From positions 1,407,883 through 1,471,882 of the forward strand of contig OY843583.1 in the NCBI GenBank assembly GCA_963692905.1: a stretch of 64,000 nt of DNA. The letters run 5' to 3'. Below the pieces are notes generated by a model. The model made no database searches. It worked only from the letters and a program-made list of their open reading frames with translations, and was not told where the DNA came from. Made by a program: the position numbers and the translations under genes. This document shows positions 7,094-35,415 of the stretch, piece after piece. Within the stretch, counting starts at the first letter, position 1; each line of letters begins with the position of its first letter. The DNA is from Spirochaetia bacterium. Lineage in GTDB: Bacteria > Spirochaetota > Spirochaetia > G963692905.

Positions 7094-8248
7094 ATGTCTT
7101 TTTCAGAAGCATCGAGTGGACAGCAATATGCCCGTGGGCTTGAGGGCGTCGTTGCTACCGAGAGTAGTATCTGCAAGATTGATGGACAGCAGGGCCAGCT
7201 CTACTATCGAGGCTACTCAATTGAAGATCTAGCAGATCAGCATAGCTTCGAGGGGGTAACCCATCTTTTATTGAAGGGCTCTCTCCCCAATAATCAGACA
7301 TTACAGCAATTTAGCCGCCAGTTACGCGCCGAGCGGGCGCTACCCGAAGCGGTGGTAGAGATGCTACGCCGTTATCCCTCTGCGGTACACCCCATGGAGG
7401 TATTACAGTCTATTATTCCCTATATTGGCGCCCTACGGCGGGAAGAGGGGCGGGCCATTGATCTCTCCTGCGAGAATAGCTACCATCTGGTGGCACAGTT
7501 TGCCACACTGGTGGCCTATCTGCATCGTATTCGCACCGGGCAGCCAATTATTGAGCCGGATAATAGTCTTTCGCATGGGGCCAATTTTCTCTACATGCTA
7601 CATGGTAAGCCACCTAGCAAGTTGGCTGGCACGGCCATGGATGTAGCCCTTACCCTGCATGCCGAGCACAGCCTTAATGCCTCTACCTTTACCGCCCGAG
7701 TAGTGGCCTCCACGCTGGCCAACTGTTATAGCAGCGTCTCAGCTGCTATAGGCGCCCTCTACGGTCCGCTCCATGGAGGAGCGAATGAGCAGGTATTGCA
7801 GATGGTACAGAAGATAGCCAAACCGGCCGCTGCCGCAGATTGGGTTAAGCAGGCATTGGCCAAGAAAGAGAAGATAATGGGCATGGGGCATCGAGTCTAC
7901 AAGGCTACCGATCCACGAGCAGTAGCTATTGAAAGGCTTCTGCAAGAGCTATCGCAATCGTTACCCCATCATAATGATTACCCTATTCTTAAGGTGGTTC
8001 AAGAGACGGTACGTGATTACATGCGGGAGCGCAATAAACCTATCTATCCCAATGTGGATTTCTTTTCGGGCGCGGTCTATAATATGCTCTCAATACCGGC
8101 AAACCTCTTCACGCCTATATTTGCAGCGGCGCGCATTGCCGGTTGGGCTGCCCATATTGCCGAGCAATATGCTAATAATCGTATCTATCGCCCGCGGGCT
8201 CTCTACACCGGCCCGCCGCCTACCCCATTAGGGACAAGACAATCTTAG
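7094..8248 (+). CDS. gltA: Citrate synthase (short, about 380-aa type)
   Basis: Citrate synthase motifs LHAEHSLNAST, GPLHGGANE and GMGHRVYK. Confidence 0.9.
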   Translation: MSFSEASSGQQYARGLEGVVATESSICKIDGQQGQLYYRGYSIEDLADQHSFEGVTHLLLKGSLPNNQTLQQFSRQLRAERALPEAVVEMLRRYPSAVHPMEVLQSIIPYIGALRREEGRAIDLSCENSYHLVAQFATLVAYLHRIRTGQPIIEPDNSLSHGANFLYMLHGKPPSKLAGTAMDVALTLHAEHSLNASTFTARVVASTLANCYSSVSAAIGALYGPLHGGANEQVLQMVQKIAKPAAAADWVKQALAKKEKIMGMGHRVYKATDPRAVAIERLLQELSQSLPHHNDYPILKVVQETVRDYMRERNKPIYPNVDFFSGAVYNMLSIPANLFTPIFAAARIAGWAAHIAEQYANNRIYRPRALYTGPPPTPLGTRQS

Positions 8249-9655: not shown

Positions 9656-11020
9656 TTAATTATGTTCGATTCCATTGAATAATGAAGATGTCTCGTCTTC
9701 TATATTTATTGGCTTGTAAGTATCAATCTCGTTAATTATTTCTTGTAAACTCCCTGACACCCATTCATGCTTGTTGTCAAACTTGTTGTGAATATGTTTT
9801 TCTATTTCTCTAAAATGTGGGGTAAACATAGCATGTTCTATCTTATAATTCCTGTCCGGATCGCTCGTCTGATAGCCGTTCAGCCTGCTATTAACATTAC
9901 TAGCTATACCAACTTTGTACTCCCTTTCATAGTTCTGGTGAGATATCACATAGACAAACTTGTGTTGAACCTGATCTTTTTCTTTTGTGTCTGTTCTGTT
10001 AGGTGGTTCAGTCAAAAATAATAAATCCTTATCAAGTATTCTGTCAGCTATAATGGGGTTTTCTATTTCTTCTTTTAACCTTTTTCTTATTTCCACATAC
10101 GTCTGCTCTAATTTGTCTATACCAATCCACCGCCTATTAAGTATCTCTGCAGCTATGCAGGTTGTCGCACACCCACAAAATGGGTCGAGGACTACGCCTC
10201 CCTCTTTGGTGCTTGATCGTATTATTCTTTTTAACAATGGTACAGGCTTTTGAGTGGGGTATTTGGTCCTCCTTTTAGACATTGAATTTTCATAAGGAAT
10301 ATCCCCCCACCAATCATTACCATTTATCCCTTCTTCAGGGTAGTAGATTCTTTCTTTTCCAGCGTCTACTCGTATTCTGCATTTTCTACCCTGTTCGTCT
10401 ATTTGTCTGTAATGGCTTTGTATATATTCTGGAGTACAAGGAAGGGTACAATCCCCCTTAAACTGATTATGATCTTTGGTGTACCATAATATAATATCAT
10501 GCTTTTTTGCCCAACTGTTCCGTTTTCCTCTCTCTTGTCTGCCCGAAGTAGAGTACCCCCATACAATCTCATTGTTAAAGTTTTCTTCTCCGAAGATATT
10601 ATCTAATAGCAATTTAAGAAAATGAGACATAAGGGGGTCGCAGTGAAAACATAAGCTACCCGTGTGTTTTAGTATTCTTTGCATTTCAATTAACCTTATC
10701 GCCATATAACATAAATAATAAAAATTATATTTTTTCCCTATTTCTTTTGTACTGTTCAGAAAAGTATACAAACTATAATGATCCTCTTTGATTGTCTGTA
10801 CCCATTCATCTTTTACATCTTCTTTTCTGAAGATATCGTTGTACCCAATCTCTGTTTGCTTTCCTGTGTCATCTTTAGTCATGGGATACACGAATTTTTT
10901 GTTAGTGTTAAAAGGTGGGTCGAGGTAAACAAGGTCAATACAATTACTATTTATGCCTTGCAAGATTTCTAGGTTATCTCTACAAAAGATGGTTCTACTA
11001 GCTATATTACAAGGTGACAT
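9656..11020 (-). CDS. Beta-class N6A/N4C DNA methyltransferase fused to a C-terminal T5orf172/MUG113 (GIY-YIG superfamily) domain
   Basis: Motif IV DPPF sits near the N-terminus and motif I VLDPFCGCATT later, which is the beta order (PF01555-like). The C-terminal roughly 100 aa read FVYVIS...YKVGIASNVNSRLNGYQTSDP...EIEKHIHNKFDNKHEWV. Strongly AT-rich. Confidence 0.8.
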   Translation of the reverse strand: MSPCNIASRTIFCRDNLEILQGINSNCIDLVYLDPPFNTNKKFVYPMTKDDTGKQTEIGYNDIFRKEDVKDEWVQTIKEDHYSLYTFLNSTKEIGKKYNFYYLCYMAIRLIEMQRILKHTGSLCFHCDPLMSHFLKLLLDNIFGEENFNNEIVWGYSTSGRQERGKRNSWAKKHDIILWYTKDHNQFKGDCTLPCTPEYIQSHYRQIDEQGRKCRIRVDAGKERIYYPEEGINGNDWWGDIPYENSMSKRRTKYPTQKPVPLLKRIIRSSTKEGGVVLDPFCGCATTCIAAEILNRRWIGIDKLEQTYVEIRKRLKEEIENPIIADRILDKDLLFLTEPPNRTDTKEKDQVQHKFVYVISHQNYEREYKVGIASNVNSRLNGYQTSDPDRNYKIEHAMFTPHFREIEKHIHNKFDNKHEWVSGSLQEIINEIDTYKPINIEDETSSLFNGIEHN

Positions 11021-11140
11021 AACTAATACTCATATCTATATTCTACCACCTCATGCGATAATTTGGCTACCGAGCTATACACATAGTAAGAAAATAAAAC
11101 AACACCCAGGGACCCTTAGTTCATTGGAGAGTATACCGGG

Positions 11141-11160
11141 GGTGTACAATGAGTGTACAG
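11141..11160 (+). repeat. Repeat core copy R0 (short; TGTACA-N5-TGTACAG)
   Basis: Ends in GTGTACAG, then 4 nt, then the -35 box TTGCAT. Same geometry as R2-R4. Confidence 0.6.
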
Positions 11161-11164
11161 CCCC

Positions 11165-11192
11165 TTGCATACTTTGTGATATTATGTAAAAT
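11165..11192 (+). promoter_or_regulatory. Sigma70-like promoter of structured-RNA module A
   Basis: TTGCAT, 16-nt spacer, TAAAAT. Identical sequence at 11520-11547. Confidence 0.5.
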
Positions 11193-11198
11193 AAAAAA

Positions 11199-11280
11199 CA
11201 GGGCGGTCAACCGAACCACCCTGAAAGGCCCCCCCGCGCCTTAGGTGAGGACATTACCCTCACAACGCGGGGGCTTTTTT
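11199..11280 (+). ncRNA. Candidate small structured RNA, module A (two stems plus intrinsic terminator)
   Basis: Stem CAGGGCGGT/ACCACCCTG, then CCCCCGCG...CGCGGGGG enclosing GTGAGG/CCTCAC, then a T6 run. No conserved ORF on either strand. A further Y-shaped hairpin lies at 11285-11327. Confidence 0.45.
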
Positions 11281-11372
11281 GTTTCACCCTTAAGTCGATA
11301 GGGGGACGAACCCCGTGCCAAAGGGTGCTATTATATACTTATTACTAGAGATCCTTTTTTTATAATACTATT

Positions 11373-11497
11373 TTACCGCTGTACACACTCATATACATCT
11401 ACTAATTTAATGGCCCTATAAGCAGAGAATATAGGGCTATGCCTCAGGAGCCAGGCCGGGTGGCGCAAAAATTCTTATAGGTAGTGATGTTGTACAG
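11373..11497 (+). repeat. Repeat R1 (long form, 125 nt)
   Basis: About 94 percent identical to 12479-12603. Contains hairpin CCCTATA-N9-TATAGGG and the core GGAGCCAGGCCGGGTGGCGCAAAAATTCTTATAGGTAGTGATGTTGTACAG. Confidence 0.85.
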
Positions 11498-11552
11498 CCC
11501 CTGTAAACCCTGTAAACCCTTGCATACTTTGTGATATTATGTAAAATAATAA

Positions 11553-11633
11553 ACAGGGCGGCCTGCCATGCCACCCTGAAAGGTTGCCCGCACCTTTTGT
11601 GAAGTTCCAACCTTCACAGCGCGGGTCTTTTTT
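11553..11633 (+). ncRNA. Candidate small structured RNA, module A' (paralog of A)
   Basis: Same promoter (TTGCAT 11520-11525, TAAAAT 11542-11547) and same fold, with compensatory changes: GTGAAG/CTTCAC and closing pair C-G instead of T-A. T6 terminator. Extra hairpin at 11638-11683. Confidence 0.45.
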
Positions 11634-11826
11634 GTTTCGCTCTCTTGCCAATAGGGGGGTTAAGGCCCCCGTGCAAGAGAGCGCTCTTTATTTTAATATT
11701 CCCATCCTCTCTTTTACAATGGCGGGGTCGATGGCTCGGTAGCGGGTTGCTGTTGCCTTTGGCAAGTTAGAAGGTTCTACAGTGAAACCTTCTACTTTCT
11801 TGTATCGGTTGCCGTGTTCATATTCA

Positions 11827-12504
11827 TCATGCGCGGTTGGCGCCACCGCGTATCACCAGCATGGCCTCGTTAGGCTTGCTACCAACGGCTAGGATTTTTT
11901 TACCATCTGGCATGATGCGCTGTATGGCTACAAGCTCGGTCCTCCATGTGCCGTCTTTTGCTACTGGCTTGTTGTATGGAATAAGTAGCTCGTTGCCAAC
12001 TACCCGAATATAGTCGGGCGGGCTTGTGATCCCCTTCTTGGCAAGGTAGGGGTGAAGCTTAGCCGCCTCGATGGCGGGCTTGGCCTGCTCCCAGTACGCT
12101 TTGTTAAATGGCTTTGCCTTTGGTTTTGGCTCGTGGTTTACCGCTCGTGGTCTAGCAGGCGTGGCTTGGCTATCAATGCACAAGCTGAAGCGCTCGGTCA
12201 CCTCGGTAGCCTTCGGTTTTCCGTTAGCCTCGCAGGTGGTTCTATGGCACCCATAGATCCCGCTCTTAGGGCTATACCACCCTGTATCGGCATTGTTGTG
12301 TTCACCTCCTCTACAATATAGGCAAATGCCTACAAGTACGCCATCACTCCCTAGCTTCCTATACTTGTGTTCCAACAGGTGGCGCTCTACAGATACCTTA
12401 GCGGCATCGATCTGTTGACGGTTATAGCGCCCGTTTGCGCTTTCTAATATGTCCACGTCTCCCCCATATTTTTTTTCTTTACCGCTGTACACCCTCATAT
12501 ACAT
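11827..12504 (-). CDS. Truncated phage/plasmid-type primase-like protein (Zn-ribbon plus start of a Toprim-like region)
   Basis: Cys/His cluster CLYCRGG...YGCHRTTC, then HPYLAKKGI...LLIPY...LVAIQRIMPDGKKILAVGSK, typical of P4/TraC-like primase N-termini. Ends after 225 aa without the catalytic Toprim or helicase parts. The 5' end lies inside repeat R2. Confidence 0.5.
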   Translation of the reverse strand: MYMRVYSGKEKKYGGDVDILESANGRYNRQQIDAAKVSVERHLLEHKYRKLGSDGVLVGICLYCRGGEHNNADTGWYSPKSGIYGCHRTTCEANGKPKATEVTERFSLCIDSQATPARPRAVNHEPKPKAKPFNKAYWEQAKPAIEAAKLHPYLAKKGITSPPDYIRVVGNELLIPYNKPVAKDGTWRTELVAIQRIMPDGKKILAVGSKPNEAMLVIRGGANRA

Positions 12505-12603
12505 CTACTAATTTAATGGCCCTATAAGGAGAGAATATAGGGCTATGCCTCAGGAGCCAGGCCGGGTGGCGTAAAAATTCTTATAGATAGTGAGGGTGTA
12601 CAA
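12479..12603 (+). repeat. Repeat R2 (long form)
   Basis: Paralog of R1. Core ends in GTGTACAA, then 4 nt (AAGA), then the -35 box TTGATT at 12608-12613. Confidence 0.85.
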
Positions 12604-12646: not shown

Positions 12647-12850
12647 ATGGCTGGCAAAGGCAAAAAAATCCGAACAGTAGGTGTAGTGGGCGCGATTATC
12701 ACTGCGCTTTGCTGCTTCACTCCGATTCTTGCGATTGGCGTAACGGCAATCGGTCTGGCTGGCATTATCGGCTGGCTGGACTATGTTTTGTTTCCGTTAT
12801 TGTTCTTGTTTTTGGGAGCGATAACTTATTCATTTATTCCGAAAAAATGA
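12647..12850 (+). CDS. MerF-like two-helix mercury/metal transporter
   Basis: LCCFTPILAIGVTAIGLAG..GWLDYVLFPLLFLFLGAITY matches the MerF pattern with its vicinal CC pair. Start chosen downstream of the predicted promoter (TTGATT-17-AATGAT). The alternative ATGs at 12632 and 12635 would precede the predicted transcription start. Confidence 0.6.
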   Translation: MAGKGKKIRTVGVVGAIITALCCFTPILAIGVTAIGLAGIIGWLDYVLFPLLFLFLGAITYSFIPKK

Positions 12851-13053
12851 GCATGCCAATCCTGCGAACCACAATTACCTCTCCGCAGTGCGGACATGAG
12901 GCGGAAGAGAGCATGCCGAAAACGCATGTCAGTGGTTTTATGAGTGTTTATCTTGCCGGTCATTGTTACGCCCTAAAAAGGGTGATTGTTGCGTTTTTTT
13001 GTTCATATGGCGAGCATCCGTGTCCACCAAAGCAACACGGTGACGGTTGTTGA
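12847..13053 (+). pseudogene. GDCCVxC-domain (mer-associated) small protein carrying two compensating homopolymer frameshifts
   Basis: ATGA overlap with the merF-like stop. Ends match the family (ITSPQCGHEAEESMP ... FCSYGEHPCPP). The family core ENACQWFYECLSCRSLLRPKKGDCCVF is encoded in the +2 frame between the A4 run at 12919-12922 and the T7 run at 12994-13000. Confidence 0.55.
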
Positions 13054-13095: not shown

Positions 13096-13129
13096 CGTAA
13101 AAATTCTTATAGATAGTGATGTTGTACAG
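13096..13129 (+). repeat. Repeat core copy R3 (short form)
   Basis: CGTAAAAATTCTTATAGATAGTGATGTTGTACAG, then 4 nt, then TTGCAA. Confidence 0.8.
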
Positions 13130-13133
13130 TGAG

Positions 13134-13162
13134 TTGCAAAGTTTTGGCATAGCTGCTATAAT
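13134..13162 (+). promoter_or_regulatory. Orphan sigma70-like promoter after R3, cut off from its cargo by the IS
   Basis: TTGCAA, 17-nt spacer, TATAAT. The left inverted repeat of the IS begins about 40 nt downstream. Confidence 0.5.
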
Positions 13163-13204: not shown

Positions 13205-14567
13205 GGAATTAAAGAGACCTAGTGACCCCCTAGCCTGCACATACTAGCTCATACTCATCCTCCTAGGCAACCTCCGGGTATACTTGTGGCAATGGTGGAA
13301 GAAAAGGTGGTACTCGCATGGAAAGCCGTACCTTCTGGTAAAAGCACTCCTCCCGCGCCCTCTGAAACAATGTCTTGTATGCCTCAAGACGGTCACGGGT
13401 CATGGCTCGATCACATTCAAAGACGCTCCAGTGAAGCAGGCCCTCATCAATGGACGTGTGAGCTTCACGAAGTTTCTGGAGCGGACTTCCTCCCTTGTAG
13501 CTATTATATCGCGTGAGATTAAAAAAGCTATTATAGCGCTGTACCTCACGGAGCAACGCCTGAGTGGAGGGAGGGGGAAGCAGATGCATCCACAACTCAT
13601 CCTCATTCAACCGGTGGACACTTTCCACATCGCTTTGCCAGTTCTTCTGTCCCAGCGGGATTAAACGATGCACAGCCCCCCATTTCAGCATGGCCAGGAT
13701 TGAAAAGGCTGAAGCATGCGCATCTCCATAGGCATTGGTGAACTCTCGGCCATTATCGGTTTGAAACATTATCTCGGTACAATCTATGCCATGATGAGAG
13801 AAATGCGCACAGAGTTCATCGACAAATATCGCGGTAGCAGTTTGCGTGTTTTGCGACGAGAGCGCCATAAAGAGGGCTCCGGTGCGCACATCTCGGGCGG
13901 TAAGCTGGTACGAGGGAAGCCCTAGGCGCTGAATCAGAGGCGCATAGCCATGAATATCGGTGAGATACTTCACATCAACCATAATTCGCGCACCAGGCGG
14001 GAGTAACTGTTTTCGTTGGAATACTACCGGTGAAAGAGCTTTTCTCACCTTCTGTGGACGCGTGATTTTGAGTCCTTCTCTATGAAGGAGCGAAAGGATA
14101 GTGGAGAGACTATAGGGAATCTTCCATTTTTGTTTGAGCCACGACGCACTAATGACTATCTTCTTCTTAGTATTCGGTGCGCGATAGCGAATAAGTCGTG
14201 CACGTTCTTTTGTGGCCTCATCAATAATCTTCAAACACCAATAGGGGATCATGGCGTTGGGGGAATTAGCGGGCCTCGTGGAGCGATTCGTCAGAGGCTC
14301 ATCTTCTTTGGCCCGTCGTACCCATTTCCGCACCGTAGTGCGCGCAATCTCATAGGTTCTGCACGCTGGCTTAATACCATGACGCGTGGCATAGGCCACC
14401 ATTTCTTCACGGACCGCGCTCTGTAAGCGCGGGGTGGCATCCCGTATGACAGTATGATATACTATTTTCACATCCTGTTCTCCTTTTTATTATATTTTCT
14501 ACTGCAGTATAGCAGTTCTCCGGCATTTCTTGCTGGAGAGGGGGGTCAGGATGTCTCTTTATTTTCC
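13205..14567 (-). mobile_element. IS element (rve/DDE transposase; IS481/IS3-superfamily-like) with about 28-bp imperfect terminal inverted repeats
   Basis: Left end GGAATTAAAGAGACCTAGTGACCCCC. Reverse complement of the right end GGAAAATAAAGAGACATCCTGACCCCC. No clear target-site duplication seen. Confidence 0.6.
13263..14471 (-). CDS. DDE transposase (HTH plus integrase-core rve domain)
   Basis: N-terminal HTH (ARTTVRKWVRR). Catalytic-like D (MVDVKY), D (QTDNGREF) and E (SDVESVHR). Confidence 0.8.
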   Translation of the reverse strand: MKIVYHTVIRDATPRLQSAVREEMVAYATRHGIKPACRTYEIARTTVRKWVRRAKEDEPLTNRSTRPANSPNAMIPYWCLKIIDEATKERARLIRYRAPNTKKKIVISASWLKQKWKIPYSLSTILSLLHREGLKITRPQKVRKALSPVVFQRKQLLPPGARIMVDVKYLTDIHGYAPLIQRLGLPSYQLTARDVRTGALFMALSSQNTQTATAIFVDELCAHFSHHGIDCTEIMFQTDNGREFTNAYGDAHASAFSILAMLKWGAVHRLIPLGQKNWQSDVESVHRLNEDELWMHLLPPPSTQALLREVQRYNSFFNLTRYNSYKGGSPLQKLREAHTSIDEGLLHWSVFECDRAMTRDRLEAYKTLFQRAREECFYQKVRLSMRVPPFLPPLPQVYPEVA

Positions 14568-25123: not shown

Positions 25124-25261
25124 CCGAGATGAGAAAACCCATTGAGTTGGATTAGGGAGCGGTTTCATCCGCTCCCGCTCTCTATTAGTGTGCAATCATC
25201 ATCGACCGCATGCCGGTATTGGGTATCGTAGCGTTGCGAACAGTTAGAAGAATCGGTATGC

Positions 25262-25315
25262 TTCAGGGCCAGGCCGGGTGGCGTAACAATTATTATAGGT
25301 AGTGATGTTGTACAA
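25262..25315 (+). repeat. Repeat core copy R4 (short form)
   Basis: TTCAGGGCCAGGCCGGGTGGCGTAACAATTATTATAGGTAGTGATGTTGTACAA, then 4 nt, then TTGACT. Confidence 0.8.
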
Positions 25316-25319
25316 ATGC

Positions 25320-25348
25320 TTGACTCTCGCGCCGTTTTTCGCTATAAT
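25320..25348 (+). promoter_or_regulatory. Sigma70-like promoter giving a (near-)leaderless transcript
   Basis: TTGACT, 17-nt spacer, TATAAT. The ATG lies 7 nt after the -10 box. Confidence 0.55.
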
Positions 25349-25355
25349 ACAGTTT

Positions 25356-25718
25356 ATGAAAATTTTTCGTATTATAATTTTAGTTTTGGGCATTCTGTTG
25401 TCCATACAGGGAATCATCGGCACGGTTGTCGACATATCCGGGGGCATCCTTGAGTTCTCCAGCATTGCAATTGAGAGCATATTCAGCGCGATTTCTGCTC
25501 TGCTTATCGTGATTGTGTTGGCCGGCCGGATGCAGGCGAGCCGGTTCGGGCAGCTGGTCGCGGCGGTCGTCTCGGTTTCCTTCTTTATGAACATCATACT
25601 GGCGCTGGGCTTCGCAGTCGGTATGCTTGAGCAGGGCAACCCCAATCTTGTGTGGTTCATACCCTTGGTTCCCGCCGTAATTCAATCGCTCTTTTTGATT
25701 TACTATCTGCGATCCTAG
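25356..25718 (+). CDS. Small integral membrane protein (about 4 TM helices), unknown family
   Basis: Hydrophobic helices throughout. Start chosen at the ATG just after the predicted transcription start. Confidence 0.5.
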   Translation: MKIFRIIILVLGILLSIQGIIGTVVDISGGILEFSSIAIESIFSAISALLIVIVLAGRMQASRFGQLVAAVVSVSFFMNIILALGFAVGMLEQGNPNLVWFIPLVPAVIQSLFLIYYLRS

Positions 25719-34310: not shown

Positions 34311-34811
34311 TTAGAAAATTGGCCAGTTTAACACAAAGCAGACAAAAGGGGTTATCTTCTCATGATTAAGCATAGCTTTTATGCCTATAAGATTTTTCCC
34401 TAATCGTTCTACCGCATTCCCTTGTGCCTGTTTCCTCTTGCCTTCTTTCTCTCTATCTTTATTTGTACCCTGTCTTTTTACCTCTGCAACAAGAACAATT
34501 TTAATATAGTTGTGTTCAGTATCTTTTCTTAGTAGCAAGATCCCTCCATCTGGCTTTATGGTTCTTTCTTTATACTGAGTTTCAAATTCATCTCGTATTC
34601 TCTGGTCTTTGATCATCTTTTGCATCTTCTCAAAAGAGATAGATTTCTCAAACTGCAAGTAGTACCCCTTTAATTCATATTCAAACCTTCCCTCTAAATA
34701 CTCTCTTGCCAATTTCTGAGCTCTATAAATTTCCTTGTCATCTATTTTAGATTTAGTATTTTTGGCTCGGTGTTGATTAATATTTCTTCTTAATTGCTCA
34801 CTGGTTGCCAT
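34311..34811 (-). pseudogene. EcoRI/MunI-like type II restriction endonuclease, apparently C-terminally truncated
   Basis: IKPDGGILLL...IVLVAEVKRQG...GNAVERLGKN aligns with the EcoRI PD..E.K core and the GNAIER recognition motif. Stops about 30 aa after GNAVER, with no continuation in other frames. Confidence 0.6.
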
Positions 34812-35415
34812 AAAAATAGTGCCCCCTCATTCCGCGGACATTAAACACTAGTACTTCACTATGAAACAATATATCTTCAAATAAATTTTTAGGGAGACTA
34901 ATAATACTGGTAATAGCTGGATATGTACCATCTACAAATTTTCTCCATCGTTTACTGTCAACCGTTTGATTAAGACGGAAGCCATACGGAGTAAACATAA
35001 CAATAGGGATATTTCTGCCAAATAATTCAATGGCCTTCATTAGCCATACTTCGGGCAATAGCGGTCTCCCTCCATAATGTAGTTTTACATACGCTTTAGT
35101 TTTTGCATCAATGTTAAAGGGGGGATTCATGATTATTAGAGCCGGATTAGGCAACTCCCCCCTCTTAAACTCAAGATAATTTTTCTTTATCATAGGAGAA
35201 AAGCCTTGATCTTCTATATCTATGCCTAATACATCATATCCGGCCTGCACAAAAGGAAGGAGAAGTGAGCCCCTACCAACACAAGGATCTAATATCAATC
35301 TCTTTTTAATATGGTCTTTTAGTATTGAATAGAGAAAGCGGCTAGTAGATAAAGGGGTATATACAGTTGCCTTCTTTTCATTAGTATAAAAGTTGTTTCT
35401 ATCTACTCTGTACAA
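34798..35415 (-). CDS. Small gamma-class N6-adenine DNA methyltransferase
   Basis: Motif I ILDPCVGRGSLL comes before motif IV NPPF. Overlaps the REase gene by 14 nt. TTG start. Confidence 0.75.
   Translation of the reverse strand: MYRVDRNNFYTNEKKATVYTPLSTSRFLYSILKDHIKKRLILDPCVGRGSLLLPFVQAGYDVLGIDIEDQGFSPMIKKNYLEFKRGELPNPALIIMNPPFNIDAKTKAYVKLHYGGRPLLPEVWLMKAIELFGRNIPIVMFTPYGFRLNQTVDSKRWRKFVDGTYPAITSIISLPKNLFEDILFHSEVLVFNVRGMRGHYFYGNQ

Follow-up and report, generated by a model that had tools for sequence, protein, structure and literature searches.

Two tandem modules in the genome of a Spirochaetia bacterium (GenBank assembly GCA_963692905.1) keep the same secondary structure although their sequences have diverged. 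One, A, spans 11154-11332 and the other, A', 11491-11688; they are repeated in the same orientation, 355 nt apart, within the window, i.e. the whole stretch of 64,000 nucleotides analysed here (contig OY843583.1, positions 1,407,883 to 1,471,882 of the forward strand), and all coordinates below are counted from its first nucleotide. They lie in an island between the genes for citrate synthase (7094-8248) and grpE-dnaK (14729 onward), and each consists of a promoter-like block followed by three hairpins, H1, H2 and H3, with a run of six T after H2. The pattern of changes between the two copies indicates that the structure is preserved by selection and that the modules are a functional structured nucleic acid, far beyond chance. 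Most simply, the conserved structure is read as that of a stand-alone RNA equipped with a promoter and a terminator of its own; each module is most likely a gene for a small regulatory RNA, the two belonging to a hitherto undescribed family. In the full form of this reading, to which we give about even confidence, A and A' are two old paralogous genes for stand-alone small non-coding RNAs (sRNAs) on the + strand; transcription, its strand, the RNA ends and a regulatory role are what we infer from the sequence.

Conservation of the secondary structure

The two copies have three hairpins in common. H1 occupies 11199-11223 in A (CAGGGCGGT / ACCACCCTG) and 11554-11578 in A' (CAGGGCGGC / GCCACCCTG); its 7-nt loop differs between the copies, its closing pair changes from T-A to C-G, and a C.A mismatch inside the stem, which reads G.U on the minus strand, is kept in both. 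H2 is branched and rich in guanine and cytosine (GC). In A it extends over 11224-11285 (hairpin and T6 at 11224-11280), with the outer stem GCCCCC..GGGGGC, the inner hairpin GTGAGG/CCTCAC, T6 at 11275-11280 and then GTTTC, and in A' over 11579-11638 (hairpin and T6 at 11579-11633), with the outer stem GCCCGC/GCGGGT, which includes a G.U pair, the inner hairpin GTGAAG/CTTCAC, T6 at 11628-11633 and again GTTTC. H3 of A (11285-11327) has the outer arms CACCCTT/AAGGGTG enclosing a conserved ATAGGGGG..CCCCGTGC core and is followed by a T-rich tail, while H3 of A' (11638-11683) has the outer arms CGCTCTCTTGC/GCAAGAGAGCG, which differ from those of A by three double compensations, around the conserved ATAGGGGGG..CCCCCGTGC core.

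In the RNAalifold consensus of the two copies all 38 pairs are kept; six of them carry a substitution in both bases and one in a single base, and no pair is broken. The double-changed pairs are 12-20 (UA/CG), 37-78 (CG/GU), 54-64 (GC/AU), 91-134 (AU/GC), 93-132 (CG/UA) and 96-129 (UA/CG). When the pairing partners were slid by 1-3 columns as a control, only 32-57% of positions paired and the double changes numbered 0. Substitutions affect 36 columns, 13 among the 76 paired columns, all of them pair-preserving, and 23 among the 59 unpaired ones. Random substitution was also simulated: all pairs were retained in 0 of 200,000 runs, with a minimum of 4 broken pairs, or of 2 when the 13 hits were forced into the stems. 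The z-scores of the minimum free energy lie between -2.9 and -5.9.

The helices, the short linkers (GAAAGG, CUUUUUUGUUUC and AUA/GUGC) and the entire promoter block are kept between the copies, whereas the outer stem of H3 and the apical loops have drifted; the loops differ at five of seven positions each and are nearly randomised, the least conserved part of the modules. Helices that are kept while loops are almost randomised imply that the copies are old and that selection has held the fold. The six compensatory pairs, the lack of any broken pair and the randomised loops together thus argue for a functional structured nucleic acid. A first-pass annotation of the locus had reached the same conclusion from covariation, and the details that it gave are confirmed: a common fold over about 80 nt of differing sequence, the T-A to C-G change that closes stem 1, the G:C to A:T change in the inner hairpin of H2, the GC-rich outer stem and T6 of both copies and, past the T run, a second hairpin with different arms that shares G5/C5 and GTGC.

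The same annotation had stated that no open reading frame (ORF) is conserved. This holds for coding-type conservation, which six-frame translation of both copies failed to reveal in any ORF of the modules, and needs qualifying in one respect, as a 22-codon frame from GTG is open in both. This sole shared frame changes at most positions where the DNA differs, and its changes are nonsynonymous and track the stems rather than codons. The translations contain no conserved hydrophobic peptide, and a type I toxin-antitoxin locus was rejected.

Promoter-like block and proposed transcript

Upstream of H1, 33 of 33 nt are identical between the modules (CCCTTGCATACTTTGTGATATTATGTAAAATAA, at 11162-11194 in A and 11517-11549 in A'). 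This string was counted twice in the window against an expected 0.00 and has no further occurrence there. It holds, in A, a -35 element TTGCAT (11165-11170), a 16-nt spacer and a -10 element TAAAAT (11187-11192), so that the promoter-like block covers 11165-11192 on the + strand; the same letters, TTGCAT-16-TAAAAT, stand at 11520-11547 (+) in A'. The first-pass annotation had already reported this shared arrangement, and the identity is found to span the full 33 nt. The shared 5' edge of both modules is TGTACAGCCCC, at 11154 in A and 11491 in A', upstream of TTGCAT. A palindrome, GGGGGTGTACA-ATGAG-TGTACAGCCCC (11138-11164, +), lies 5' of module A, and in A' alone TGTACAGCCCC is followed by an 18-nt insertion, (TGTAAACCC)x2, before TTGCAT (11491-11519, +).

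The first base of H1 is 6-7 nt past the -10 hexamer, and transcription would start at the foot of H1, at ~11198-11200 in A and ~11553-11555 in A'. We propose that TTGCAT-16-TAAAAT acts as a sigma-70-type promoter, with TGTACA 5 nt before the -35 element in module A, in a layout common to at least three other promoters of the window. The RNA would open directly with H1, run into the branched, GC-rich H2 and stop at the U6 tail, so that H2 would be the intrinsic-terminator-like 3' end of a product of ~83-86 nt. On the + strand, H2 of both copies has what defines an intrinsic terminator, i.e. a GC-rich stem-loop directly before a run of at least five U: an outer stem of 6-9 pairs (GCCCCCGCG/CGCGGGGGC in A) precedes CTTTTTTGTTT, with the tail pattern T6-G-T3. 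Such T-run terminators show no general enrichment in this genome (19 found, 16.2 expected), and the H2 terminator therefore stands out. H3 and the T-rich tail behind it may terminate transcription a second time, as a back-up, or form the 3' extension of a read-through RNA of ~135 nt. The GC content of the RNA part of the modules is ~57%.

There is no ORF on the + strand downstream of either module, which makes the unit self-contained. As both copies are nevertheless held by selection, their function would be one that needs no downstream gene. Two kinds of active surface can be envisaged, a conserved helical scaffold that binds a protein or acts as its decoy, and divergent loops that serve as copy-specific pairing determinants; conserved helices and linkers beside drifting loops are compatible with both. 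A riboswitch or attenuator was rejected in view of the missing + strand ORF downstream, of the loops being the least conserved part and of the failure to find an alternative pairing on inspection.

Some of these observations bear on another reading, in which the modules are orphaned promoter-proximal control units, each a promoter with a regulated terminator (an attenuator, or an antitermination gate like PR'-qut-tR') whose downstream genes were lost in rearrangements of the island. We regard this as improbable. A promoter block kept at every base, spacer included, is what would be expected if a factor binds across the promoter; a strong terminator lies ~80 nt downstream, with a second hairpin after it; and within the island there are remains of phage origin as well as promoter cassettes that recur in front of real genes. 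A string after H3 of A', GCGCTCTTTA, has an apparent likeness to the core of boxA. However, the structure has been kept through a long divergence with no + strand gene downstream of either copy, inspection revealed no alternative antiterminator pairing, A does not preserve the boxA-like string, and the surroundings of the modules yielded no gene of the Q, N or LoaP type. A resemblance to lambda boxB/boxA was rejected, since the stem has 2 bp only and the boxA-like string is confined to A'.

Choice of strand

Watson-Crick compensation looks alike from either strand, and as each strand also has wobble pairs, these do not settle which one is transcribed. The promoter layout, the GC-rich stem followed by T6 and the G.U-only pairs peculiar to it, which number three (32-80, 37-78 and 100-125), speak for the + strand, which we favour; transcription of the minus strand, or a sense/antisense pair, is the main rival.

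A number of observations weigh against sRNA genes on the + strand. TTGCAT-16-TAAAAT agrees with the sigma-70 consensus at 8 of 12 positions (TTGCAT at 3 of 6) and falls below the cut-off of our promoter scan, which was set at 9 of 12 positions; a sigma-70-type promoter would have hexamers close to TTGACA and TATAAT at a spacing of 16-18 nt. The TGTACA of A' is shifted by 18 nt relative to the -35 element. The identity of 33 nt exceeds the needs of a plain promoter, which suggests an operator across the block or gene conversion. No single-stranded seed is conserved, and the covariation evidence comes from two sequences, too few for R-scape. Homologues were not found, although this is weak evidence, because the large collections were searched by exact patterns only and the organism is isolated, the GrpE nearest to its own being 53% identical. 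The minus strand, moreover, folds somewhat better (consensus energy -57.95 against -51.5 kcal/mol), has five G.U-only positions against three, including the H1 pair kept in both copies and three that extend H2, and was also scored for a terminator in both copies, where H1 is followed by the T-runs T6AT4 and T3AT2AT4.

These last points are the strength of the rival reading, that functional transcripts arise on the minus strand or as a sense/antisense pair on both strands. The minus RNA would consist of H3, GAAACAAAAAAG, H2, CCUUUC and H1 in this order and stop at the H1 terminator (U6AU4); it would be either the 3' end of transcription from the side of a neighbouring primase fragment or the leader or attenuator of a neighbouring methylase gene (from 11020, minus), with the + RNA perhaps as its cis-antisense partner. 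Both of these flanking genes are on the minus strand, a promoter-like site TTGACC-18-CATAAT (10/12) inside A is directed at the methylase, and another, TTGTAA-18-TAAAAT, lies just upstream of H3 of A'. These sites are, however, not at homologous positions in the two copies, and the region is AT-rich, so that promoter-like matches are enriched in any case (10 found, 3.6 expected). The methylase is a separate and recent low-GC acquisition, and its relatives are without such a leader. Minus-strand transcription would also leave unexplained the 33-nt block with its correct -35/-10 spacing and its TGTACA-N5-TTG layout, and the + strand has G.U-only pairs of its own. We consider the minus strand unlikely and prefer the + strand because the minus promoter-like sites are not homologous between the copies and the gene that they would serve is a newcomer.

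Repeat R and a common promoter layout

Shared 11-mers revealed that what looks like a spacer between A and A' belongs to a repeat family of its own, R. The copy found there, R1 (11372-11497, +), forms an imperfect palindrome of 125 nt that is 95% identical to R2, and its 3' end (...GTGATGTTGTACA) abuts A'. R2 (12478-12602) is upstream of the gene merF and overlaps the 5' end of the primase fragment; R3 (13099-13129) and R4 (25254-25314) are partial copies. R2 is bounded by a perfect 12-bp terminal inverted repeat, TGTACACCCTCA...TGAGGGTGTACA, and R folded as single-stranded DNA gives z = -4.2 and -4.6.

All copies of R end in ...GTGA(T/G)G(T/G)TGTACA, and a -35-like TTG stands exactly 5 nt past R2 (TTGATT), R3 (TTGCAA-17-TATAAT) and R4 (TTGACT-17-TATAAT, just 5' of an ATG); the promoters after R3 (13134-13162) and R4 (25320-25348) are near consensus. 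The layout of module A, TGTACA-GCCCC-TTGCAT-16-TAAAAT, matches these R-associated promoters, the common form being TGTACA-N5-TTGNNN-N16/17-(-10). After R1, the 18-nt insertion of A' intervenes between TGTACAGCCCC and TTGCAT. The window contains six instances of TGTACA-N5-TTG where 0.32 are expected, and four of the six are at promoter-like sites (module A, R2/merF, R3 and R4). This shared layout supports transcription of the modules from the + strand, and no other observation argues as well for the + strand block being a real promoter; the modules would be driven by a promoter class which also serves protein-coding genes in the window.

The right arm, TGAGTGTACAG, of the palindrome 5' of A resembles the 3' end of R. 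Only a short scar of R would thus be left at this place, as if the interior of the repeat had been lost; a diverged full-length R upstream of A was rejected, as the similarity is not significant. A MerR operator at TGTACA-ATGAG-TGTACA was rejected as well, since the motif is upstream of the -35 element rather than in the spacer.

R may be a miniature inverted-repeat transposable element (MITE)-like sequence, or else a cassette, portable and with an upstream promoter or regulatory role. It lies ahead of merF, the RNA modules and the gene for a 120-aa four-helix membrane protein (25356-25718). Directly after the R3 promoter is an IS481-family transposase gene (13263-14471, -), which probably displaced a gene once served by this promoter. 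In its size, as a 125-bp imperfect palindrome, R is like the Vibrio cholerae repeats (VCR, integron attC), but the canonical core sites of attC are unmatched, and the annotated parts of the window contain no integrase or other recombinase. It is conceivable, as a long shot, that the locus is an array of an undescribed kind, made up of the R scar with module A, R1 with A' and the primase fragment, R2 with merF and the gene of a GDCCVxC-domain protein, and R3 with its promoter and IS481. R would then have two roles, one as a site of recombination or mobilisation and the other as the upstream half of a promoter, TGTACA-N5-TTG, that is portable, and self-contained regulatory RNA genes, each with its own promoter, would be shuffled like integron cassettes without a recognisable integrase. 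The R palindrome, the portable promoter layout and the cassette-like order are the more unusual feature of the locus.

The repeats also bear on whether the modules act as DNA. As hairpins in DNA they might be a single-strand initiation (G4-type ssi) or origin signal for the primase, a recombination site, or a structured intergenic repeat of the MITE, BOX or REP type. Watson-Crick compensation fits DNA hairpins on either strand equally well, the locus is a mosaic of repeats that includes the palindromic R with its terminal inverted repeat, and the primase remnant adjoins the modules. Against this, the modules lack terminal inverted repeats and target duplications and have two copies only in 64 kb, even with an unfiltered covariance model; the primase is a dead fragment whose intact relatives carry nothing similar; G.U-compatible changes (CG to GU, UG to CG) are tolerated by RNA and less expected of DNA hairpins; and the promoter and terminator layout would have no explanation. 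A function at the DNA level is accordingly doubtful, somewhat more so than transcription of the minus strand. What probability remains beyond the four readings (+ strand sRNA genes, minus-strand transcripts, control units and DNA signals) belongs to other explanations.

Search for homologues and known families

At gathering thresholds, Rfam 15 gave only tRNA-Trp (48454) in the whole window, and the modules fall in no family; this covers C4 antisense RNA, which the first-pass annotation had named as a candidate, and also ctRNA, NsiR1 and riboswitches. A permissive scan of 10900-11900 gave four noise matches of 15.7-17.1 bits (E = 1.8-7.5), all far under their thresholds. That annotation had also proposed to collect homologues with nhmmer and Infernal. 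These searches were run on the window and on fetched loci, and no homologue came of them: a third copy was found in the window neither by pattern nor by nhmmer nor by unfiltered cmsearch with the covariance model of the pair, and the fetched loci gave none by nhmmer or by the pair model (run on 35 loci). The same two methods found nothing similar in the grpE region of the nearest relative (L039).

A blastn search of the locus against phage and plasmid collections returned nothing. Four exact patterns (H1, promoter, H3 core, and terminator with H3) were searched in IMG/VR; two had 0 matches, and two had matches that are all unrelated as judged by nhmmer, the covariance model and inspection. In GTDB genomes the exact H1 pattern had 10 matches, which are fimbrial-usher coding sequence, an apparently coding stretch of Paralcaligenes and unrelated hairpins. 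JGI metagenomes yielded two exact matches, consistent with chance, one of them identical to a locus from Terriglobales.

Hairpins with the arms CAGGGCGG...CCACCCTGAAAGG and the same C.A mismatch, apparently non-coding, were seen in Vicinamibacterales, Pyxidicoccus, Terriglobales and one metagenome contig. The sites are in L008 (~760-800), where the palindrome extends to TTTCAGGG...CCCTGAAA, L009 (7808-7839), L010 (2902-2933, identical to 927-959 of L037) and L038 (5296-5326). Their occurrence in unrelated bacteria is probably coincidence, the number of matches being about that expected by chance for the pattern.

Targets were sought as well. RNAduplex against 38 start regions of the window returned unrealistic whole-length duplexes, without a signal at the neighbouring genes, and shared 11-mers revealed no antisense target.

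Comparison with known systems

Tandem orphan sRNAs are common in bacteria, and OmrA/OmrB, PrrF1/PrrF2 and LhrC1-5 are similar tandem sRNA paralogs. The modules are like such arrays in lying head-to-tail a few hundred bases apart, each with a short structured RNA between a promoter-like block and an intrinsic terminator, and like such paralogs in that the sequences diverge while the fold is kept. They differ in having no conserved single-stranded seed, an extra hairpin (H3) past the terminator and a wholly invariant promoter block. The cyanobacterial NsiR1, an RNA of ~60 nt, is present in 12 tandem copies with individual promoters, and NsiR1.1 and NsiR1.4 have been studied as distinct variants (PMC9045159). 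As regards organisation only, our locus is a tandem sRNA gene array of the NsiR1 kind, with two units that each comprise a promoter-like block, a fold of ~85 nt and T6; in sequence the modules are not members of the NsiR1 family, whose covariance model gives 16.8 bits (E = 1.8) against a gathering threshold of 39.

A second group for comparison is formed by counter-transcribed RNAs (ctRNAs), the C4 antisense RNA of P1/P7 and the P4 CI RNA. The modules resemble these in being small and highly structured, with a putative promoter and a terminator, in mobile-element DNA with a primase-type gene next door, and we count it as a further likeness that loops are the specificity determinants of these RNAs. 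On the other hand, ctRNA_p42d scores 15.7 bits against a threshold of 50 and C4 has zero matches; the modules overlap no 5' leader of a replication gene and sit past the truncated 3' side of the primase fragment. A P4-type CI or satellite immunity RNA is expected within an intact P4-like immunity and replication operon, upstream of and co-oriented with the primase and with complementary target sites. Here the primase, reduced to an N-terminal piece of 225 aa, is encoded on the strand opposite to the modules, and related elements are without the module; this candidate was rejected.

Structured intergenic repeats and MITEs that bear promoters or terminators include Correia elements, BOX and REPIN. 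The modules share with them a secondary structure that is kept while the sequence drifts, and the location in a repeat-rich mosaic, and differ in the lack of terminal inverted repeats, target duplications and a high copy number. With two adjacent copies in 64 kb, a MITE or mobile intergenic repeat was rejected. Nor do the modules have the features that define attC sites. Further candidates that were discarded are a guanidine-II-like ACGA loop in H3 of A, which is not conserved in A', and a CRISPR repeat or RNA anti-CRISPR mimic, as the copies are not identical and cas genes are absent.

Neighbouring genes and the island

The island is a scrambled patch of acquired DNA, a mosaic of repeats with phage-derived debris. 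To the left of the modules is a gene (9656-11020, -) whose product combines an N6_N4 methylase with a T5orf172 (GIY-YIG-like) domain. Its GC content of 36%, against ~49% for the genome, indicates that it was acquired separately; it also contrasts with the ~57% of the RNA part of the modules. The methylase-T5orf172 family, notable in itself, is very large and multi-copy; it counts thousands of members, and several come from annotations of uncultured metagenome-assembled genomes. One contig (L042, ena:ERZ21742408:ctg6167l, 1138839-1160128) carries at least 13 diverged paralogs of 413-482 aa, head-to-tail and 8-15 nt apart, and the 1.88-Mb source contig has at least two more (P0016 and P0121). 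Neither nhmmer nor the covariance model found a module near the closest relatives of the methylase (58-60% identity) or near the 13-gene array (L033-L036 and L042).

To the right is the primase fragment (11827-12504, -), of 225 aa. This ORF represents the first ~215 residues of a phage-type primase of ~850 aa; it has the zinc ribbon and ends where the Toprim domain should begin. No other primase pieces were found near the fragment, and supposed C-terminal pieces at 29.4-29.8 kb were rejected, the genes there being dnaX, ybaB and recR. Intact relatives of the primase (L040 and L041) are on circular contigs of ~10-20 kb with genes for a portal, head decoration and a lambda-type capsid, mini-phage-like or capsid-forming satellite-like elements; their non-coding regions contain no sequence or structure like that of the modules. 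The link to the primase drawn in the first-pass annotation, as a satellite immunity or antisense RNA or a replication origin, is therefore not upheld, the primase being fragmentary and its intact relatives without the module. Neither the methylase nor the primase is a conserved partner of the modules.

Further to the right are a merF-like transporter gene (12662-12850, +) and the gene of the GDCCVxC-domain metal-binding (seleno)protein (~12847-13053, +). The latter ORF ends in ...GDGC-TGA, in which TGA may encode selenocysteine. Another low-GC patch (38% GC; 34311-35415, -) contains pieces of two genes, for an EcoRI-like restriction endonuclease (166 aa) and for an N6 methylase (205 aa), and looks like a decayed restriction-modification system. 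Among palindromic hexamers in the window, TTCGAA, CACGTG, GACGTC and TTTAAA are scarce, at 0.12-0.15 of expectation, and TGGCCA and AGCGCT are in excess at 2.8 times expectation. This bias fits heavy restriction-modification pressure in the genome.

Conclusions

The pair of modules is a solid finding of an ordinary kind, with no bearing on a long-standing open question. If transcribed, A and A' would make up a new family of structured sRNAs, in a bacterium that has hardly any sequenced relatives; covariation between the paralogs already backs the fold, so that experiments could set out from clear predictions. Together, the R palindrome and the common arrangement TGTACA-N5-(-35) point to a regulon of local extent, or to a promoter cassette that is portable, with merF and the gene of the small membrane protein served as well, and either of these would inform on how gene expression is organised in this lineage.

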